Assembly (NCBI RefSeq): GCF_938010525.1
Contig: NZ_CALLVK010000021.1
Coordinates: forward strand, 183,263-247,262
Direction of reading: 5' to 3'
Source: an uncultured Abiotrophia sp.
Lineage (GTDB): Bacteria > Bacillota > Bacilli > Lactobacillales > Aerococcaceae
DNA: 64,000 nt
The translations under genes and the position numbers were made by a program. Of this stretch, positions 5,167 through 12,645 are shown piece by piece. Every line of letters begins with the position of its first letter. Within the stretch, counting starts at the first letter, position 1. Below the pieces are notes generated by a model, which saw only the letters and a program-made list of their open reading frames with translations, had not been told where the DNA came from and ran no database searches.

Positions 5167-5793
5167 ATGATTGTTCGTGATACTGTCCAAATGGCCTGCC
5201 CTTATTGCCAGCATGTCCAAGATTTCGAAGTTCTCTTGCTTGTGACTGGCGATATGGAGCCCCCTCTGCGTGACCGCATTATCTCTGGCGATTGGGCGAC
5301 CTTTAGTTGCCAGAAGTGTCAAAAGCAGGAACGTATCCTCTACCCTACCCTCTACGAAGGCCGCGTTCGCAAGGTCAGAATACACTACCAGCCAAACGAA
5401 GTGGAAGCCGCTCAACTCCTCAAGCAATTGCCCGAGACGGTCGCCTCTTACGGACCTGATTATGCCGACTACCAAGTCCGCCTAGTAACCAATCCCTTGG
5501 ACTTCATGGAGAAAGTAGCCATCTTCACTGCCGGCTATGATGATCGTATCATGGAAGCAGTCAAACAGGCCTTAAAACAAGCCGACAGCCTTCCTAATGA
5601 CCTAGTCGACCTCTACTTCGGACTTAACCCTGAAGGAGACAAATTGTTCTACCTCTACACTCCTTCTGGCTTGCTGGGGCTAGACTTTGATGAGGCACTC
5701 TACCAGCAAGTAGCTGAGCGGGCCCCTGAATTTGGCCAAGATCAAGTTTTTGTGGTAAATCAAGAGTGGTTGGCTCAAGAAACTTGGATTTAG
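5167..5793 (+). CDS. Hypothetical protein with N-terminal CPxC...CxxC zinc-ribbon-like motifs (CpXC-like)
   Basis: 208 aa; GAAGGAG SD 9 nt upstream; CPYCQH and CQKCQKQ pairs ~35 aa apart. Function unknown. Confidence 0.5.
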   Translation: MIVRDTVQMACPYCQHVQDFEVLLLVTGDMEPPLRDRIISGDWATFSCQKCQKQERILYPTLYEGRVRKVRIHYQPNEVEAAQLLKQLPETVASYGPDYADYQVRLVTNPLDFMEKVAIFTAGYDDRIMEAVKQALKQADSLPNDLVDLYFGLNPEGDKLFYLYTPSGLLGLDFDEALYQQVAERAPEFGQDQVFVVNQEWLAQETWI

Positions 5794-5804
5794 AAAGCAA
5801 AAAA

Positions 5805-5838
5805 AGACTGGAAGCTAGAGTATCCAGTCTCTTGTTTT
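5805..5838 (+). terminator. Rho-independent terminator after the 5167-5793 gene
   Basis: agactgga...tccagtct hairpin followed by cttgtttt. Confidence 0.55.
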
Positions 5839-6117
5839 GCGATTAGGTAACTATTTTAGTCAAAGATTGAGTAGGCACCAAAAAAATTTTCTAGAATAGG
5901 CAATTTGGGTACACGGCATCTAGTCGGTTTACTTAAGTAAATAATCCAACAATTCATTTATCCCATATTCACAGCTCAATCCTAAGCTCCTAGTCTAACA
6001 TTATCAAACATTTAAAATTGAATTTTAAATTTGAAACTCTGGTAAAATCTCCTTACTTGCCGCTAGACGTAAAGAATCTATATATTAGCTACTTGTAGGA
6101 TTATCACAAATCTATAT

Positions 6118-6984
6118 TCATATAAATTGTATGGAAGGGTGATTCGTAACTTTAATGGCGGGGCTATGGAATAGATATTCTTTTTCTTTACGTACTCTAT
6201 TTACCGAATATCTTATAGTGTACACGTAACTGGGTAAATCTTGATACAGAATTTTTATAGGCTCCTCGTAATCATAAGTCGCAATCCATTTATAGTTATT
6301 AAGCAATTCAATATGATTCCGTAGAACTTCATGGTTTTCATGAAGAAAGAAATTTTTGTATAAATTTTTACCTTGATTATAATATGGAGGATCAAAGAAA
6401 ATAAAAAGATGGTCTGCAGATTTCGATAGCAACACCTCTTTAATTAGTGTGTTTGCTTCTAAATTATAAAGATGTATTCGATTTCTAAATTTACTAATGC
6501 GCTTAATCTTTTTAGTTAGAGTATCTTTATTAAATCTACAGTCTAACGTATACTTACTTAATTGCTCTTTACCTCCAATCGGTCCCCCTGTTATTATGCC
6601 GGATCTATTAGTTCTATTTAAGAACAGTGTAGCAAAGGCAAGTTTAAAATCATACGCGTTACCATCAATTAATTGATGGTATATAGCTTTTTGCTTTTTC
6701 CACATGGAAATATCCACACAAGTATCCTGAATATAATCAATCAATCTGTGAGATTCATATAGTATAGCATACCATAAACTATATATACCTAAATCTAAAT
6801 CATTAATGATTACCTCTTCGACTACACCTGAGAATAATAACTCTAGTCCCGCTCCAAATCCACCAGAATACGGTTCACAGTATATAACATGTTCCATTTC
6901 ATTTTCGTTAATTAAATGCGAAACAAAACCTGCTAGCTGGGTTTTACCCCCTGGATACCTTAATGGCGTTTTCGTATGAGGCAT
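6118..6984 (-). CDS. DNA N6-adenine methyltransferase, D12 class (Dam-like)
   Basis: N-terminal KTPLRYPGGKTQL and catalytic FFDPPYYN (DPPY) motifs. Start set at the internal ATG (MPHTKTPL...) because GGGAGGGGAG sits immediately upstream; the ORF-track M1 at 6999 has no SD. Confidence 0.8.
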   Translation of the reverse strand: MPHTKTPLRYPGGKTQLAGFVSHLINENEMEHVIYCEPYSGGFGAGLELLFSGVVEEVIINDLDLGIYSLWYAILYESHRLIDYIQDTCVDISMWKKQKAIYHQLIDGNAYDFKLAFATLFLNRTNRSGIITGGPIGGKEQLSKYTLDCRFNKDTLTKKIKRISKFRNRIHLYNLEANTLIKEVLLSKSADHLFIFFDPPYYNQGKNLYKNFFLHENHEVLRNHIELLNNYKWIATYDYEEPIKILYQDLPSYVYTIRYSVNRVRKEKEYLFHSPAIKVTNHPSIQFI

Positions 6985-7039
6985 AAACTCCCCTCCCATT
7001 CACAATCCCTAATAGAATAACAGAATTTGCCAATTTTCG

Positions 7040-8683
7040 CTACCTTTTTGATAAATCCCATCTTTCGGGTTGGATTCCGTAGAATTCAGCTGTTTTATGG
7101 AAAACTATGCGTAAATTTTCAATAAAGCTATCTATATCCTTTGTATTACAGTTAATCCAGTCTTCGAGGACCGATTTCCACAATATAGAATGATTATTAA
7201 ACATTTTTTTATTAAACTCTCTCTGTTTTCCTTTATTGCTTTTTCTTTCTTGCTGCCTAGTTTTCAATCTCGACGCGTTCTCATCAATCTCATTACGTAA
7301 TTTTGCTAATTGCTTTCCATTATATCCATCATGATCTAAAATTGTATAATTATCACTCCAAAAACCATCAGATAGGCTATTGCTATGATTAAATGCTAGT
7401 TCTTCCGGAGACAATTTCCCAGGCAAACATATTAGATGCCTATTAAGATCGTTTTTTGATTGATCCCCATCTAATATATAGATTGAACGAAAAGTGAATT
7501 TTAGTAAAACGTCATCATTAGACAGTGTTTTAATAGTCTCTGCGGAAAACGTTGCATTTACCAAGTAAAAGAACTTCTTAACATCTAATTGTGTTTTTCT
7601 CTCCATATATTCAAAGATTAATTCTAAAAATAATCGAGCTTCTGCATCTTCTGTAAAAATGGGTATCTTGTTAGCAAAGCCTCTATCTCGGCCAACAATC
7701 TCATTAAGTTGTGTCTCAATTTTATAGTAGTCAGGATCCTGCATTAGCCTTACTTTGTTGCTATCATCAATTAGATATATGAGTTTTATTTTATCATCCT
7801 TTATGTTTTCTCTTTTTAATAACGTTAAGCTATGTGTCGTAAACATAACCTGAATTCCATAGTCTTTACTATATTCCTTTATCTTTTTTAATAACTTAAT
7901 CTGAAAAGCAGGATGCAAAGAAGCATCAAATTCATCTATAAGTAATATGCTACTGATCCCTTCTTTTTTATCAGTATGCTCTTTAAAATAATATTGTAAA
8001 GATACTAATGCCAACAAAATAATTAGAAGATTATCTTCTCCAGCGGAAATAGTATTAGAATCTATTCCGGGGGATGTGGAATCAAACTCTTGCCTAGTCT
8101 TAATCCCACCCATATTTTGAGGGCGAGAAAACTCAATCTGAAAATTTGTAAACTCATAATATAAATCACTTAACACCTTAAGCATTTCGTCCGGTAATTG
8201 TCCTGTTATTTTTTTTAAAGATTCATCTAAAAGAAACTCTCCATATGGGAAAAGTCTGAAGAGTCCAAGATAGATTACGGGTAGTTCTGGGAGCTTTTCT
8301 CCACTTTTATTACCGTACTTTGGCTTTATTGCAAAACGCATATTCTTATCTGAATTATGCCGTCGAAAGCCTAGCTTCTTATTCTCCGAATAGTACGCAG
8401 TATATAATGTCCCTGTCACACCTTTAGCTGGATCTTTGTATGTTTTTTTATCTCCTCGAGTTAAAGACTCTATCTTAGGATTAGTTAGTTTATTTAGTTG
8501 GCTAATCAATTTCATAATGGGATTACGTTTCGCAATAGGCGCCTTGTATGAGTTACTTACCAAATGCAAGATTGAACTTTTACATGTCCCATTCGTACCC
8601 GCAATAATATTTACATTTTCAGAAAAGTCAATGTCTATATTCTTTAACTTTCGGTATTTTTCTATTTGTAGTTTTTTCACCAT
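7040..8683 (-). CDS. OLD-family-like ATP-dependent nuclease: N-terminal ABC/SMC-type ATPase plus C-terminal Toprim-like domain
   Basis: 547 aa; AGGAGG SD 8 nt upstream. Walker A IIAGTNGTCKSS, signature-like ISAGEDNLL, Walker B ILLIDEFDASLHP, H-loop FTTHS. C-terminal IPIFTEDAEAR (Toprim Glu) and IYILDGDQSK (DxD) ~60 aa apart. Sits 55 bp upstream of, and co-oriented with, the Dam-like MTase. Confidence 0.65.
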   Translation of the reverse strand: MVKKLQIEKYRKLKNIDIDFSENVNIIAGTNGTCKSSILHLVSNSYKAPIAKRNPIMKLISQLNKLTNPKIESLTRGDKKTYKDPAKGVTGTLYTAYYSENKKLGFRRHNSDKNMRFAIKPKYGNKSGEKLPELPVIYLGLFRLFPYGEFLLDESLKKITGQLPDEMLKVLSDLYYEFTNFQIEFSRPQNMGGIKTRQEFDSTSPGIDSNTISAGEDNLLIILLALVSLQYYFKEHTDKKEGISSILLIDEFDASLHPAFQIKLLKKIKEYSKDYGIQVMFTTHSLTLLKRENIKDDKIKLIYLIDDSNKVRLMQDPDYYKIETQLNEIVGRDRGFANKIPIFTEDAEARLFLELIFEYMERKTQLDVKKFFYLVNATFSAETIKTLSNDDVLLKFTFRSIYILDGDQSKNDLNRHLICLPGKLSPEELAFNHSNSLSDGFWSDNYTILDHDGYNGKQLAKLRNEIDENASRLKTRQQERKSNKGKQREFNKKMFNNHSILWKSVLEDWINCNTKDIDSFIENLRIVFHKTAEFYGIQPERWDLSKR

Positions 8684-9010
8684 TCAAACCCCTCCTATAT
8701 TTGCAGTGGATATGATATTCATTACCTACTGAGAGTTCCATAAAAGACTCGAATAAAAACTCATTGTCCACATTCAATGATTAACTATATAACCTTACCC
8801 TAGTATATACCAAGAAGAATATTGTCACAATAGATCCCTCTGCGTCATTTTTAGTGGATCTATTATCTTTTTTAGCTTTCTTATATTATCTTAATATATA
8901 TACCTAACTTACTTGAATTAGTGCATATAGAGCCCTATATATCCGCCATCGATTAAAAAGTTAAATAATTCAATTATTATGATATATTTTCATGACTTTC
9001 TTTGCTGTAT

Positions 9011-9040
9011 AAAAAAAGGCTAGAACCAAGTTCTAGCCTC
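9011..9040 (-). terminator. Rho-independent terminator downstream of the SpxH-like gene
   Basis: ggctagaac-caag-ttctagcc hairpin with a T-run on the minus strand. Confidence 0.6.
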
Positions 9041-9047
9041 TCTCTTA

Positions 9048-9716
9048 TTATTTTTTTGTTGCGACCAGCTTCAACCGAGTAGGTCGAGGGCAGCAGGTTT
9101 TATCCATTAATAAGTCCACTTGTTCCAGAATGTGTTGGCACTCCATCGGTCCTTGTAAGAGGATGCCGGAGTCTCCGGAACACTGTTCAAAAATAATGAG
9201 TGACGGTGTATCTTGTACTTTCATCTCGAGCGCAATCTTTTGATCACGATAGTAGAGTTCCTTGACGTATTGAGAACGTCGGTCGCTCTCGAAGAGAGCC
9301 AAGTCCAAGCCAATATCACAGGCTAAGTTGGCCAAAAAGTCATCCGTCAGCCGTTCTAAATCAGAATTAATGCGGCTTTGCATTTCGTAGAGGTATTGAC
9401 GGCCACGGCGCTTGCCTTGCAGACCCGCTGCCCGGTAAGCCAAGGTGGCAGAATAAATCTTCTGGAAGATCTCGTTGCGATGACGCAAATCCTGAGGTTC
9501 ATAACCTAGCTGCATCATGTAACGGGCAATGAGGGGCTGACTGGTAAAGCAGAGAATATGCACATCCGTCTTGGCCGGCATTTGCTTAATCGCACGGCTG
9601 AGTTCGCGTTCTACTCTGCGGCAATCTTGCCCTAGGGGGTTAACAAAGAGATACAACTCAAATAATCTGGCCTGACCATGGCCTGATACTTGATAGGCCA
9701 CTTGTTCTTGTGGCAT
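9048..9716 (-). CDS. SpxH/YjbH-like thioredoxin-fold protein (ClpXP adaptor family, DsbA-like)
   Basis: 222 aa. Resembles B. subtilis YjbH (LYLFVNPLGQDC..., TLAYRAAGLQGKRRGRQYLYEMQ vs ALAFKAAELQGRKAGMQFLRNMQ). Confidence 0.55.
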   Translation of the reverse strand: MPQEQVAYQVSGHGQARLFELYLFVNPLGQDCRRVERELSRAIKQMPAKTDVHILCFTSQPLIARYMMQLGYEPQDLRHRNEIFQKIYSATLAYRAAGLQGKRRGRQYLYEMQSRINSDLERLTDDFLANLACDIGLDLALFESDRRSQYVKELYYRDQKIALEMKVQDTPSLIIFEQCSGDSGILLQGPMECQHILEQVDLLMDKTCCPRPTRLKLVATKK

Positions 9717-9868
9717 GCGACATTCCCTCCTCTCCGACTGGATTTCTTAAATTTATCTTAACACAAAGAATAGACAAGTTCTAATGAAATGCCTTATAGC
9801 CCGGCTAAAAGACATTGAGACTGAATCTTGCTCTGCTGGGATCAAGCGGACTGTTCTCCTTTATTTCT

Positions 9869-10072
9869 CAGTTAGCTAGTGGTCCACTCTTTAAATCGAC
9901 CACTAGCCCTCGGCTTTTTCATCGTTTTGGGCTATTTCCGACGTTTTCCATGCAGCCAGTGGTCCACTCTTTAAAGTGGACCACTGGCTCTCGGCTTTCT
10001 CGGCATTTTGGGCCCTTTTCGTCCTTTTCCCATGCTGCTAGTGGTCCACTCCAAAGAGTGGACCACTGGCTC
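9869..10072. repeat. Tandem array (2.5 copies) of an ~83-bp unit, each containing a 12-13 bp perfect stem-loop
   Basis: Copy 2 reads ccagtggtccact-ctttaa-agtggaccactgg (13-bp stem). Copies 1 and 3 carry gctagtggtc.../...gaccactagc variants. Each stem is followed by a T-rich tail ctcggctttytc...ttttggg. The array abuts the stop codon of the CYTH gene. Confidence 0.8.
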
Positions 10073-10667
10073 ATTTATTCTTCTCTAATTTGGCGTAATA
10101 GGCGCTAACTCTGGCAATTTTCTTATCAGCTGCTAGGAGCGGAAAATCGTAGGTGTGGCTTAATTTGGCTATATAGTCTTGAGCCAAGGACAGGTCTTGA
10201 GATTCTAACTCTAGCTCATAATCGACCTGATCACCATAAAGAGTCTGATCTAGCACCAACTCACCCCAGCCTAAGTCTAGGGTCCAGCGATGAGTCTGAA
10301 AACCATAGCGCATAACTAAGTCCTTGGGCTCTAGGCCTACTTGGGCTAAGGCGGCTAAGAGGCCCTTATCCTCAATCCAAGCGCCTGCCAGGCTAGTAGG
10401 CACCGAATCAAGACGCCCCACATTAGTCTGTGTAATCTCCAGAGCCTGGAACTGATCCAAAGCCTGCTTGAAGGTCCACTCACTCACTTGGTCATATTGC
10501 CGTAGGCGCAAGGCAGCCCGGGCATCCTTAAGGGCGCTCTGCTTACTATCGTAATAGTGGTTAACCTGTTGGCGCGGAGCCACCCCATCTAGCCCCAAAC
10601 CCGCCTTAAGTCGAGCAAAGCTCTCAGCCTCCAAGGCAATTTTTACTTCTTGTTCAATCAAGGCCAT
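10071..10667 (-). CDS. CYTH-domain protein (YjbK-like triphosphatase/adenylate cyclase family)
   Basis: N-terminal IEQEVKI (ExExK motif) and a later ELELE; AAAGGGGGG SD. Confidence 0.65.
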   Translation of the reverse strand: MALIEQEVKIALEAESFARLKAGLGLDGVAPRQQVNHYYDSKQSALKDARAALRLRQYDQVSEWTFKQALDQFQALEITQTNVGRLDSVPTSLAGAWIEDKGLLAALAQVGLEPKDLVMRYGFQTHRWTLDLGWGELVLDQTLYGDQVDYELELESQDLSLAQDYIAKLSHTYDFPLLAADKKIARVSAYYAKLEKNK

Positions 10668-10694: not shown

Positions 10695-11606
10695 CTATTG
10701 TTTCTTATCCATGAGATAGTTGAGGATTCTTAGGCCAATCACCCAGCCAATTGCCGAGATTAACAAGATATAGACCCAGCCCATGGCATCTTGCTCAAAA
10801 GGCAAAGGCATATTCATCCCGAAGAAGGAGGTGATAATATCTGGAATCGTCAGGAGAATGGACACAATGGTTAAGAGTTTCATGGTGTCATTCAGGTTGT
10901 TGTTCAGGACGTTGTTATAGGTGCCCGACAATTGATGCAAAATAGTCGAGGTCAACTGGGTCATTTCCACCAATTGCTTGGCTTCAATCAAGGAGTCTTC
11001 CAACTCCTCGCGCGCTGCCTCATCTAGCAGGCGAGACATGAACTGGGTCCGCAGTTGTTCCAACAACACCACATTCTGCTTGGTGGCGGAGACAAAGTAA
11101 ACAACCCCAGTAGCCAAGTCCGACAGGGCGAAGAGGTTCTGCTTGGTGGTCTTCTGTCTGAGAACCTGGTTAAGCTGGTCGCGCTCCTGATTGATTTTCT
11201 CAACCAAAGGGAAATACTGTTCAGACACGGTATAGAGTGAAGCGAATAGGAAGGTAAAGACCGAAACCCCAGGGTTGGCATCTAGATAACGGCTGAATTC
11301 TGGGATTAGGTAAGCATTGGCCTCATTGCTGATCGTAATGAGTCGGTTGGGCTGGACAATAAAGGTCATTGGCACCGTCTCATAGTGGTAATCCTGTTTA
11401 ATGGGATTAGGGACATTATAGATGATAATAAAGGTATTGCGTTCACGGTCATATTCGGTCCGAGCCCGTTCATTACGGTCCAGGGCGTATTCGACAATCT
11501 CTTCATCTAAGCCATATTGACTGAGGAGGTCCGGCCGGGAGGCAATGGTGTCCACGTCAATATTGAGCCAGCTATCTGTCTCGTTGATTGGTCGCATGCT
11601 AATCAT
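10695..11606 (-). CDS. CorA-family divalent cation (Mg2+/Co2+) transporter
   Basis: 303 aa; FFGMNMP (GMN motif) before the C-terminal TM pair; AAAGGAGG SD. Confidence 0.75.
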   Translation of the reverse strand: MISMRPINETDSWLNIDVDTIASRPDLLSQYGLDEEIVEYALDRNERARTEYDRERNTFIIIYNVPNPIKQDYHYETVPMTFIVQPNRLITISNEANAYLIPEFSRYLDANPGVSVFTFLFASLYTVSEQYFPLVEKINQERDQLNQVLRQKTTKQNLFALSDLATGVVYFVSATKQNVVLLEQLRTQFMSRLLDEAAREELEDSLIEAKQLVEMTQLTSTILHQLSGTYNNVLNNNLNDTMKLLTIVSILLTIPDIITSFFGMNMPLPFEQDAMGWVYILLISAIGWVIGLRILNYLMDKKQ

Positions 11607-11621: not shown

Positions 11622-12530
11622 TTATTTTCGGGCCAAGAGATTTTTGAGGACGCCATTAATCACTAAGCATCCAGCAATACTAATAATCAAGGTAATCAAC
11701 CAGCCCAGAGGATGATTGGCAAAGGGAATCGGCACGTTCATACCGAAGAAGCCGGTCACAAAGGTCGGTACCATGAGGATAATCTCTAGCTTGGTCAGAA
11801 TTCGAAAAATATCGTTCAAGTTATTATTTAAGACATTGTTATAGGTGTCTGACAGTTGTTGTAGGGTTTGGCCGGTCAACTGGGTCATTTCCACTAACTG
11901 GCGCGCTTCAATCAGGGTATCTTCCAATTGCTCCCGCTCCACTTCTGTTAGCGAGCGGAAAACCAATAAGGTCCGTAATTGCTCCAAGAGGACGGTATTC
12001 TGCTTGCTGGCAGTGATGAAATAGACCATGCCGGTCTCCATATCCGATAAGGCCAGGAGATTCTCCCTCGTGGTCTTGTCACGCAAGAGCCGGGTCAACT
12101 GATCTCGTTCACGGTTGATTTCTTCAACCAAAGGGAAGTACTCATCCGTCACCCGATAGAGGGCTTCGAATAGAAAGCCGAAGAGGCTTTGCTCTGGCTC
12201 TAACTCTAGATTGCGATGCATACGTTGTAAAATATAGGCATTTTCCTCGTTACTGATTGTAATCAGGCGATGCTTTTGAACGATGAAGGTCATCGGTACG
12301 GTCTCATAGTGCCGGGTCTGCTTAATGCGATTGGGCACATTGAAAATCAGGACGAAGGTATGGCTCTGGCGATCATAATCCACCCGAGCCCGCTCATTAC
12401 GGTCGGCCGCATATTCGATTATCTCATCGTCCAAGTCGAACTCCTCGATCCACTCGGGATGTTTTTCTAGGGCATCCGCTTCAATATTAATCCAGACATC
12501 CTGGGCGTTCAGGGGGACACTGCGAATCAT
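11622..12530 (-). CDS. CorA-family divalent cation transporter (tandem paralog)
   Basis: FFGMNVP GMN motif; about 50% identical to its neighbour by eye. Start set at the internal ATG (MIRSVPLN...) with AAAGGAGGG 8 nt upstream. Confidence 0.75.
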   Translation of the reverse strand: MIRSVPLNAQDVWINIEADALEKHPEWIEEFDLDDEIIEYAADRNERARVDYDRQSHTFVLIFNVPNRIKQTRHYETVPMTFIVQKHRLITISNEENAYILQRMHRNLELEPEQSLFGFLFEALYRVTDEYFPLVEEINRERDQLTRLLRDKTTRENLLALSDMETGMVYFITASKQNTVLLEQLRTLLVFRSLTEVEREQLEDTLIEARQLVEMTQLTGQTLQQLSDTYNNVLNNNLNDIFRILTKLEIILMVPTFVTGFFGMNVPIPFANHPLGWLITLIISIAGCLVINGVLKNLLARK

Positions 12531-12645
12531 GGCGCCACCCTCCTTTCCTATTTTTCTCACCTCCTTATTATACCGAAATTGGACTTAAAAAGTAAACGTA
12601 AAGGGTCCTTACCCAAAAAGGATAAAAATTCTGTTAGAAATAACA

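Follow-up and report, generated by a model that had tools for sequence, protein, structure and literature searches.

We asked what function is encoded by a strain-variable, AT-rich islet in a 64,000-nucleotide stretch of contig NZ_CALLVK010000021.1 from an uncultured Abiotrophia sp. (this whole stretch is referred to as the window, and all coordinates are counted from its first nucleotide). The islet holds two genes: gene 1 for an ATP-binding cassette (ABC) ATPase fused to a Toprim-like domain, and gene 2 for an adenine-specific DNA methyltransferase. They are currently annotated as 'AAA family ATPase' and 'DNA adenine methylase'. We found that the two genes are essentially obligate partners across phyla. 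The pair is most likely an uncatalogued restriction-modification (RM)-like immune module, whose defence role is strongly supported by its genomic context.

The first-pass annotation of this DNA had noted an abrupt switch to AT-rich composition at approximately 5.84–9.05 kb, and the GC profile agrees, with a GC fraction of 0.28–0.37 at approximately 5.8–9.05 kb versus approximately 0.45–0.52 in both flanks. Comparison with strains bearing other cargo at the same site gives essentially the same coordinates, with a variable segment from approximately 5838 to approximately 8984–9011; inter-allele homology stops at 5837 and at 8984–9011, immediately outside both flanking terminators. As had also been described, the islet contains only two open reading frames (ORFs), which are co-oriented on the minus strand and separated by an intergenic gap of 55 bp. 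This spacing holds with a start of gene 2 at the ATG at 6984. The longest ORF of gene 2 is 6118..6999 on the minus strand, and we chose the start at 6984 because it is preceded by GGGAGGGGAG and because the homologues are 288 residues long; the longer start at 6999 is unlikely. The islet and its two genes are as follows.

5838..9010, no strand: strain-variable AT-rich islet, the cargo slot between a CpXC-domain gene and a Thioredoxin_5 (SpxH-like) gene, delimited by GC content and the ends of inter-strain homology
7040..8683, minus strand: gene 1, 547-residue ABC ATPase fused to a Toprim-like domain, WP_298077820.1 (ORF, Pfam, PADLOC, phrog_3940)
6118..6984, minus strand: gene 2, 288-residue D12-class (alpha-type) N6-adenine DNA methyltransferase of the PD-λ-5_B family, WP_298077819.1 (Pfam, PADLOC)

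The ORF listing shows no third ORF of at least 50 residues in the islet to either side of the two genes, and the islet was found to contain neither an integrase nor a transposase, in agreement with the earlier statement that none accompanies the pair. A controller protein, a helicase, an integrase and a remnant of PD-λ-5_A (a family discussed below) were sought in the islet and the window and were not found, and an Rfam scan of 5500–10300 gave no match.

Conserved adjacency of the two genes in other genomes had been set beforehand as a test of the proposed module. A methyltransferase homologue adjoins the ATPase relative in 71/80 reference-genome loci, and the remaining nine comprise one deletion remnant and eight loci cut by contig ends; the pairing is therefore found in 71 of the 72 genome loci with room for a neighbour, at partner identities of 36–63%. 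It also holds in 22 of 23 viral contigs from IMG/VR. The taxa include Bacillota, Pseudomonadota, Spirochaetota, Bacteroidota, Deferribacterota, Planctomycetota, Actinomycetota and one archaeon. Species and genera with homologues of the two proteins include Streptococcus mutans, Staphylococcus hominis, S. pseudintermedius, Haemophilus parainfluenzae and Neisseria. The arrangement varies: the ATPase gene mostly precedes the methyltransferase gene, the order is reversed in some loci, and in others the two genes are convergent or divergent. When neighbouring ORFs were clustered, the ATPase (103 loci) and the methyltransferase (93 loci) were the only conserved families, the next family occurring in no more than 10 loci, and no helicase family was found to be conserved among the neighbours of the 103 loci. 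The two proteins have correlated distance matrices (r=0.59, Mantel p=0.001). Conserved linkage across phyla and this distance correlation rule out accidental adjacency, and the ATPase–methyltransferase pairing is essentially obligate.

The loci in which the pair has decayed provide a further view of this dependence. In three of them (L024 from Streptococcus ratti FA-1, L074, and L076 from Desulfosporosinus sp. I2), a truncation or frameshift disrupts the ATPase-Toprim gene and leaves the methyltransferase intact, and the reverse was seen in none; in L080, a single deletion takes the 3' part of the ATPase gene together with most of the methyltransferase gene. Such a pattern would be expected of a nuclease that becomes dangerous once its methylase is lost, but the numbers are too small for significance.

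The genomic surroundings of the pair point to defence. Elsewhere, the pair adjoins tyrosine integrases or lies in predicted prophages, and it is also present on a Bacillus plasmid; the annotations in the plasmid and phage records read only 'AAA family ATPase', 'hypothetical protein' and 'DNA adenine methylase'. In Abiotrophia, a protein look-up showed that the content of the slot varies among strains from human oral metagenomes that share an identical Thioredoxin_5 flank protein (loci L090–L095). The slot is occupied by the ATPase and methyltransferase pair, by a type I-C CRISPR-Cas locus, or by a sugar operon with a phosphotransferase system (PTS) and an Mga regulator, and the pair itself is present as two alleles whose ATPases are 87% identical. 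The slot is a defence hotspot that is strain-variable in this species.

Given this context, we examined what kind of effector gene 1 may encode. Its domains and motifs are listed below.

7799..8683, minus strand: ABC ATPase head, residues 1–295, with Walker A at G29–S37 (8573–8599) and the signature motif ISAGEDN at residues 212–218
7910..7945, minus strand: Walker B/D-loop LLIDEFDASLHP, residues 247–258, in the ATPase head, whose H-loop is H284
8060..8551, minus strand: family-specific ATPase insert, residues 45–208, between Walker A and the signature motif
7409..7672, minus strand: Toprim-like nuclease core, residues 338–425, with E345/D346/E348 after β1 (7640–7651) and D405-G-D407 at the end of β3 (7463–7471)
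7043..7408, minus strand: C-terminal helical domain, residues 426–547, with invariant R488, K492, W509 and W542

The gene 1 protein is identical to WP_298077820.1 from an uncultured Abiotrophia sp., and its ATG is preceded, 6 nt upstream, by AGGAGGGG. Pfam matches are AAA_15 (1.7e-17), AAA_21 and SMC_N. The best PADLOC matches, at approximately 1e-17 to 1e-19, are the OLD-clan models GajA, AriA, retron ATPase-Toprim_I-B, PtuA and HEC-04, of which GajA, AriA and ATPase-Toprim_I-B reach approximately 1e-19. The protein also matches phrog_3940 over its full length (2e-98), a family that PHROGs files under 'unknown function'. Gene 1 has 1279 homologues, and the motifs quoted in the first-pass annotation (GTNGTCKSS, LLIDEFDASLHP, FTTHS, IPIFTEDAEAR and YILDGDQSK) are all present and are invariant in an alignment of 36 of them. 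The protein carries the Walker A, signature, Walker B/D-loop and H-loop motifs that characterize the N-terminal ABC-type ATPase of the OLD family.

The AlphaFold2 (AF2) model of the gene 1 protein has a predicted local distance difference test score (pLDDT) of 78.7. The family-specific insert is poorly ordered in this model, with pLDDT below 50 at residues 69–81, 142–152 and 187–201, and it contains the invariant residues N64, N68, P69, K70, E72, R107, R116, K120, G140, G148, E149, K195 and R197. No PADLOC model was found to match residues 40–215. Judging from the model, the insert is a candidate site of contact with DNA or with a partner protein.

The nature of the C-terminal domain is less easily settled. 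Pfam and NCBIfam scans of gene 1 returned ATPase families only, so that the AAA_15 and AAA_21 matches that had been anticipated were found but the accompanying Toprim or OLD match was not; no curated Toprim/OLD model of Pfam or NCBIfam was found to detect the domain. Comparison of the domain with Pfam and PDB sequences, using 16 members singly as well as a profile, gave no Toprim and no meaningful match, which speaks against a firm Toprim call, and Foldseek searches of the C-terminal model against the PDB gave nothing significant, with GajA and AriB appearing only at E values of approximately 1.3–1.8. On the other side, a separate model of residues 296–547 has a pLDDT of 85.3 and places E345 directly after strand 1 and D405-G-D407 at the end of strand 3 of a small parallel sheet, which would correspond to a Toprim pattern; E345 and the DxD motif at 405–407 are invariant among the gene 1 homologues. 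Taken by itself, the C-terminal fragment has a match to HEC-04 in PADLOC at 1e-6, and the HEC-04 alignment registers the essential residues E319/D375/D377 of that protein on E345/D405/D407 of gene 1. The structural matches of the C-terminal domain are AriB (the best), Bp OLD and Ts OLD, and those of the full-length model are GajA, Ts OLD and Eco8 OLD. An exhaustive hidden Markov model (HMM) search with a profile of residues 296–547 recovered only 409 of 1.84 billion cluster representatives; those of full length are almost all approximately 550 residues long, with the match at approximately 300–560. The C-terminal family thus appears, by its sequences, to be compact, divergent and always fused. 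The earlier proposal of an OLD-like ATPase-Toprim protein accordingly stands for the ATPase head and for the best matches of the C-terminus, which are OLD-type Toprim nucleases, and we make the model-based assignment of the C-terminal domain as a Toprim nuclease domain with moderate confidence.

Gene 2 can be assigned more directly. Its two diagnostic motifs, both on the minus strand, are invariant among the homologues.

6943..6960, minus strand: S-adenosylmethionine (AdoMet)-binding motif RYPGGK of gene 2
6382..6393, minus strand: catalytic motif DPPY of gene 2

The protein is identical to WP_298077819.1 from an uncultured Abiotrophia sp. It matches Pfam MethyltransfD12 (5.6e-12, 46.4 bits against a cut-off of 22), which bears out the earlier assignment to the D12-class N6-adenine methyltransferases, as does the presence of DPPY. 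Two PADLOC models match it strongly: PD-Lambda-5_B (PDLC04018) at 5.3e-104 over residues 6–288 and profile positions 1–279 of 291, and MTase_II (PDLC03358) at 9.3e-84 over the full length. With its AdoMet motif and DPPY, gene 2 has the predicted hallmarks of a Type II methyltransferase. The closest solved structure is 7m6b, at only 1e-12. An orthologue of Dam, which would target GATC, was considered and rejected: the NCBIfam model TIGR00571 scores 43.1 bits against a cut-off of 114.85.

In a separate observation, GATC heads the list of under-represented 4-bp palindromes in the window, with 143 sites observed versus 250 expected from a second-order Markov model of the whole window (observed/expected ratio of 0.57); the next most depleted 4-bp palindromes are GTAC (0.72) and TGCA (0.74). 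This depletion suggests long-term GATC-specific restriction pressure in the lineage. Because the islet is strain-variable, the depletion cannot be assigned to it. The islet itself holds 10 GATC sites.

The match of gene 2 to PD-λ-5_B links the pair to a validated system. PD-λ-5 is a two-gene defence from an E. coli prophage, described as 'ParB/HEPN, methyltransferase' (Vassallo et al. 2022, PMC9519451) and characterized in the same work as a compacted RM and abortive infection (Abi) system with broad protection, the cloning of which needed an mrr-deleted host. It gives its strongest protection against phages of the T-even group, which carry DNA refractory to classical restriction (PMC9519451). 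That PD-λ-5 requires an mrr-deleted, Dam+ host argues against GATC as the motif of this methyltransferase clade. The methyltransferase of the islet is a full-length member of the PD-λ-5_B family, and both systems are compact, mobile, often prophage-borne and methylation-linked modules. They differ in the effector, which is a ParB/HEPN protein in PD-λ-5, whereas the ATPase-Toprim gene lies outside the PD-λ-5 definition. In the window as a whole, tblastn with eight PD-λ-5_A-like proteins gave only matches with E>0.3, and gene 1 does not match the PADLOC PD-Lambda-5_A model.

Elsewhere, the two kinds of effector meet. A PD-λ-5_A homologue lies beside the pair, upstream, between or downstream of its genes, in 16/103 ATPase-centred loci (for example L020 at 3.4e-79, and L018 and L067 at approximately 1e-30), and such three-gene loci unite PD-λ-5_A, the ATPase-Toprim protein and the methyltransferase. 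We also sampled 80 metagenome loci centred on the methyltransferase, of which 15 were too short to call: 35 carry PD-λ-5_A only, 13 the ABC ATPase only, 8 both and 9 neither. Among the more distant ATPase partners, the majority retain a match to the C-terminal profile as well as xDGD. As judged from these neighbourhoods, the methyltransferase appears to be a promiscuous modification module, and the ATPase-Toprim protein one among several effectors that can replace, and sometimes accompany, one another. More distant methyltransferases of this clade adjoin HerA-like (DUF87) ATPases and a Schlafen/AlbA_2 protein, or a protein with a Type I S-subunit-like domain (L125:3999-7899, L146, L123:2943-4964 and L193:5897-7288); by their position, these proteins are candidates for additional effector partners.

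We then compared the pair with described systems. The OLD classes comprise the stand-alone Class 1 (P2 Old, Ts OLD), Class 2 in Gabija (GajA), Class 3 in retron Eco8 and Class 4 in PARIS (AriA/AriB), and a 2024 survey places OLD-family proteins in eight systems, none of them methyltransferase-linked. The predicted architecture of gene 1, an ABC ATPase at the N-terminus and, at the C-terminus, a Toprim-like domain with an acidic metal site, resembles that of the OLD family, but its obligate partner is a methyltransferase, which places the pair outside the described classes. Gabija was rejected, as the adjacent UvrD/PcrA-like GajB helicase is absent at the islet. PARIS was rejected as well: a single 547-residue protein unites the ATPase with the Toprim-like domain, and a separate AriB gene is absent. 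For retrons and Septu, the partner genes are absent, with no retron reverse transcriptase or noncoding RNA beside gene 1.

Among single-gene systems, HEC-04 is a validated ABC ATPase-TOPRIM defence protein in which mutation of E319/D375/D377 abolishes defence (Payne et al. 2024 preprint). HEC-04 and IbfA (from plasmids R64/pUA1135) are Abi-type defences that are toxic when over-expressed. Gene 1 is predicted to share their ABC ATPase-TOPRIM architecture, and the HEC-04 HMM matches residues 244–437 (E 1.9e-17) over profile positions 232–407 of 494 only; the match is partial, as the ATPase insert and the C-terminal helical domain of gene 1 diverge. In contrast to gene 1, whose family was not seen stand-alone where this could be checked, HEC-04 and IbfA defend without a dedicated methyltransferase. 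HEC-04 also occurs embedded in the methylase-containing system Hma (Payne et al. 2024 preprint). PMC12839542 reports that OLD-ABC/Toprim modules share loci with DNA adenine methyltransferases in Hma/MADS, BREX and BREX-related systems, and interprets these modules as backup suicidal effectors of BREX-like systems. In Hma and BREX, however, the OLD modules are accessory or embedded parts of 4–8-gene systems with their own primary effectors, whereas here the methyltransferase and the ATPase-Toprim protein make up the whole system.

The pair also resembles classical RM systems. It has a stand-alone m6A (N6-methyladenine) methyltransferase tightly linked to a putative nuclease gene; its gene order and orientation are free; it is mobile, compositionally foreign and located in a defence hotspot; and its nuclease decays first (3 loci versus 0). 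It differs in having an ABC ATPase motor, not a superfamily 2 (SF2) helicase. The folds of characterized restriction endonucleases are PD-(D/E)XK, HNH, GIY-YIG, PLD and half-pipe, and to our knowledge Toprim is not among their catalytic folds. No restriction endonuclease model of PADLOC was found to match gene 1, whether as the full protein, the C-terminal domain or the insert.

On balance, we lean towards reading the islet as a self-contained, horizontally mobile two-gene defence module that tells self from non-self by DNA methylation. The most parsimonious form of this reading, to which we give about the same modest preference, is an ATP-dependent defence gated by methylation. Here a methyltransferase of the PD-λ-5_B type would mark host DNA at a motif that is probably not GATC. 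The ATPase-Toprim protein would be an ATP-dependent effector of the OLD/HEC-04 kind, probably a dimer or oligomer clamping nucleic acid through the ATPase head and the family-specific insert, which would fire on meeting unmethylated target DNA and cleave through the metal site formed by E345/D405/D407. Recognition might be intrinsic to the nuclease, as in Type II systems, or it might be supplied by the methyltransferase, as in Type III systems or BREX. Because one methyltransferase clade serves unrelated effectors, sometimes two per locus, methyltransferase-assisted recognition is at least as likely as a Type II-like arrangement. To the architecture, motifs, obligate pairing, hotspot and prophage context and PD-λ-5 kinship described above, this mechanism adds methylation-sensitive firing, DNA as the substrate and complex formation, which we infer.

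The invariance of Walker A and B, the signature, the H-loop, E345, DxD, DPPY and RYPGGK predicts that both proteins are catalytically competent, and favours this mechanism. So do the slot shared with CRISPR-Cas, the occurrence of the pair as prophage cargo and beside integrases, and the membership of the methyltransferase in a validated RM and Abi family, to which 16/103 loci add PD-λ-5_A. Several points weigh on the other side. The closest ATPase-Toprim relatives, HEC-04, IbfA and P2 Old, are Abi effectors that work without a methyltransferase; AriB, the best structural match, is a tRNase, and P2 Old is now reported to be one as well. The strong action of PD-λ-5 against T-even phages is a hint of Abi activity. 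In the islet, the nuclease gene comes first and the methyltransferase gene second, and a controller protein was not found. The 3-versus-0 decay asymmetry is statistically non-significant, and the ATPase gene is twice as long as its partner.

A more ambitious claim is that the pair is a true RM system whose endonuclease is an OLD-type ABC ATPase-Toprim enzyme. It would then represent a fifth, methyltransferase-linked OLD class, the first restriction enzyme family with a Toprim fold and an ABC motor, and one of the arms of a modular 'PD-λ-5 superfamily', where a single clade of Dam-like methyltransferases would license ParB/HEPN proteins, ATPase-Toprim proteins and HerA-like ATPases. We put this forward tentatively, as a possibility somewhat short of probable.

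The main rival is a model in which the ATPase-Toprim protein does not cut unmethylated invader DNA at all and is instead an abortive-infection or 'guard' effector, a suicide protein like OLD, PARIS or IbfA and possibly a tRNase. Its triggers could be an anti-restriction protein, an S-adenosylmethionine hydrolase, or loss or inhibition of the methyltransferase, which would act as sensor, guarded partner or antitoxin. The tRNase AriB as best structural match of the C-terminal domain fits this model, as do the single-gene Abi relatives HEC-04 and IbfA with their toxicity on over-expression, the 'RM+Abi' character of PD-λ-5 with its strongest effect on T-even phages, and the reading of OLD-ABC/Toprim modules in BREX-like systems as backup suicidal effectors in PMC12839542. 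We nevertheless regard it as rather unlikely: an Abi effector that senses a trigger needs no methyltransferase, yet the pairing is essentially obligate over a wide phylogeny, and approximately 85% of the loci contain no other nuclease that the ATPase-Toprim protein could back up.

As a selfish addiction module, the pair would instead stabilize its carrier element or islet by post-segregational killing, with phage defence incidental. Its life as mobile cargo beside integrases and inside prophages, the foreign, AT-rich composition of the islet and the loss of the nuclease before the methyltransferase (3 loci against 0) would all be expected of such a module. Its seat in a chromosomal hotspot that is home to CRISPR-Cas in other strains speaks for selection for immunity, however, and the related PD-λ-5 and HEC-04 have been shown to defend against phages; we consider addiction as the main role improbable, bearing in mind that for RM systems addiction and defence are not mutually exclusive. 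It is more improbable still that the two proteins are functionally independent, with an orphan or anti-restriction methyltransferase as the neighbour of either a Class-1-like OLD protein that acts alone or a nuclease dependent on modification (Type IV-like). Class 1 OLD genes, HEC-04 and IbfA do work alone, and the methyltransferase clade, which exceeds the ATPase family in size, also includes members that have other partners or no partner. Yet an ATPase family member without a methyltransferase was never found where the contig allowed the check, the linkage is kept while the gene order shuffles, and the two proteins co-vary; moreover, it would be suicidal if a nuclease attacked the DNA that its neighbouring methyltransferase modifies.

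How far the system is new depends on the level considered. The first-pass annotation had proposed that the module is undescribed, which holds with respect to the described OLD classes but not for its parts: the methyltransferase family is already known from the validated PD-λ-5, and links of OLD-ABC/Toprim proteins to methylation in Hma and BREX have been published. PADLOC 2.0, Pfam and NCBIfam contain no model for the gene 1 ATPase as a whole, and no two-gene system of an OLD protein and a methyltransferase was found described in the literature, where Krishnan et al. 2020 (a classification of ABC ATPases) lay outside the scope of the search and might show such neighbourhoods. Since PADLOC 2.0 lacks a model for the ATPase, loci of this kind probably go unrecognized as defence systems or are counted as orphan methylases. 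Should methylation gate the effector, the OLD/Toprim ATPase nucleases, whose activation signals have mostly been unclear so far, would be tied to the classical self/non-self discrimination by methylation. The RM repertoire would gain a nuclease fold and a motor type, perhaps with a new ATP-dependent, sequence-specific enzyme, and PD-λ-5 would take its place in a modular family with a shared methyltransferase at its centre. The oral Abiotrophia strains, with the pair, CRISPR-Cas or a sugar operon at one site, offer a natural experiment in the turnover of a defence island.

Three further features mark the borders of the islet and the start of the operon.

5799..5836, no strand: putative bidirectional terminator (hairpin and T/A run, inverted repeat I23) at the left border, common to the convergent CpXC gene and lying within the conserved flank
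5899..5985, no strand: putative remnant of the ancestral intergenic spacer, 3' of the methyltransferase gene, 87 bp with 78% identity to L095 6865-6952
8684..8830, minus strand: candidate upstream region of the two-gene operon, with the Shine-Dalgarno sequence AGGAGGGG and weak sigma-70-like promoter candidates

From its sequence, the hairpin at 5799..5836 is the probable operon terminator. The counterpart of the 87-bp stretch in L095 lies on the Thioredoxin_5 side of the PTS-bearing allele, that is, on the other side of the cargo. The similarity makes it probable that the stretch is left over from the ancestral spacer, in which case the insertion points of the pair and of the PTS operon differ slightly. 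The promoter-like sites at 8830–8802 and 8813–8784 are weak, sigma-70-like matches to the consensus only.

Outside the islet, an 81-bp tandem repeat of 2.5 copies with 82% matches occupies 9874–10072, in the intergenic region between a CYTH gene and the Thioredoxin_5 gene. Each unit holds a palindrome, AGTGGTCCACT...AGTGGACCACT, and has no Rfam match. Beyond it lie two tandem CorA-family paralogues of 303 and 312 residues on the minus strand (10695–11606 and 11622–12560), which represent an ordinary gene duplication unrelated to the defence pair.

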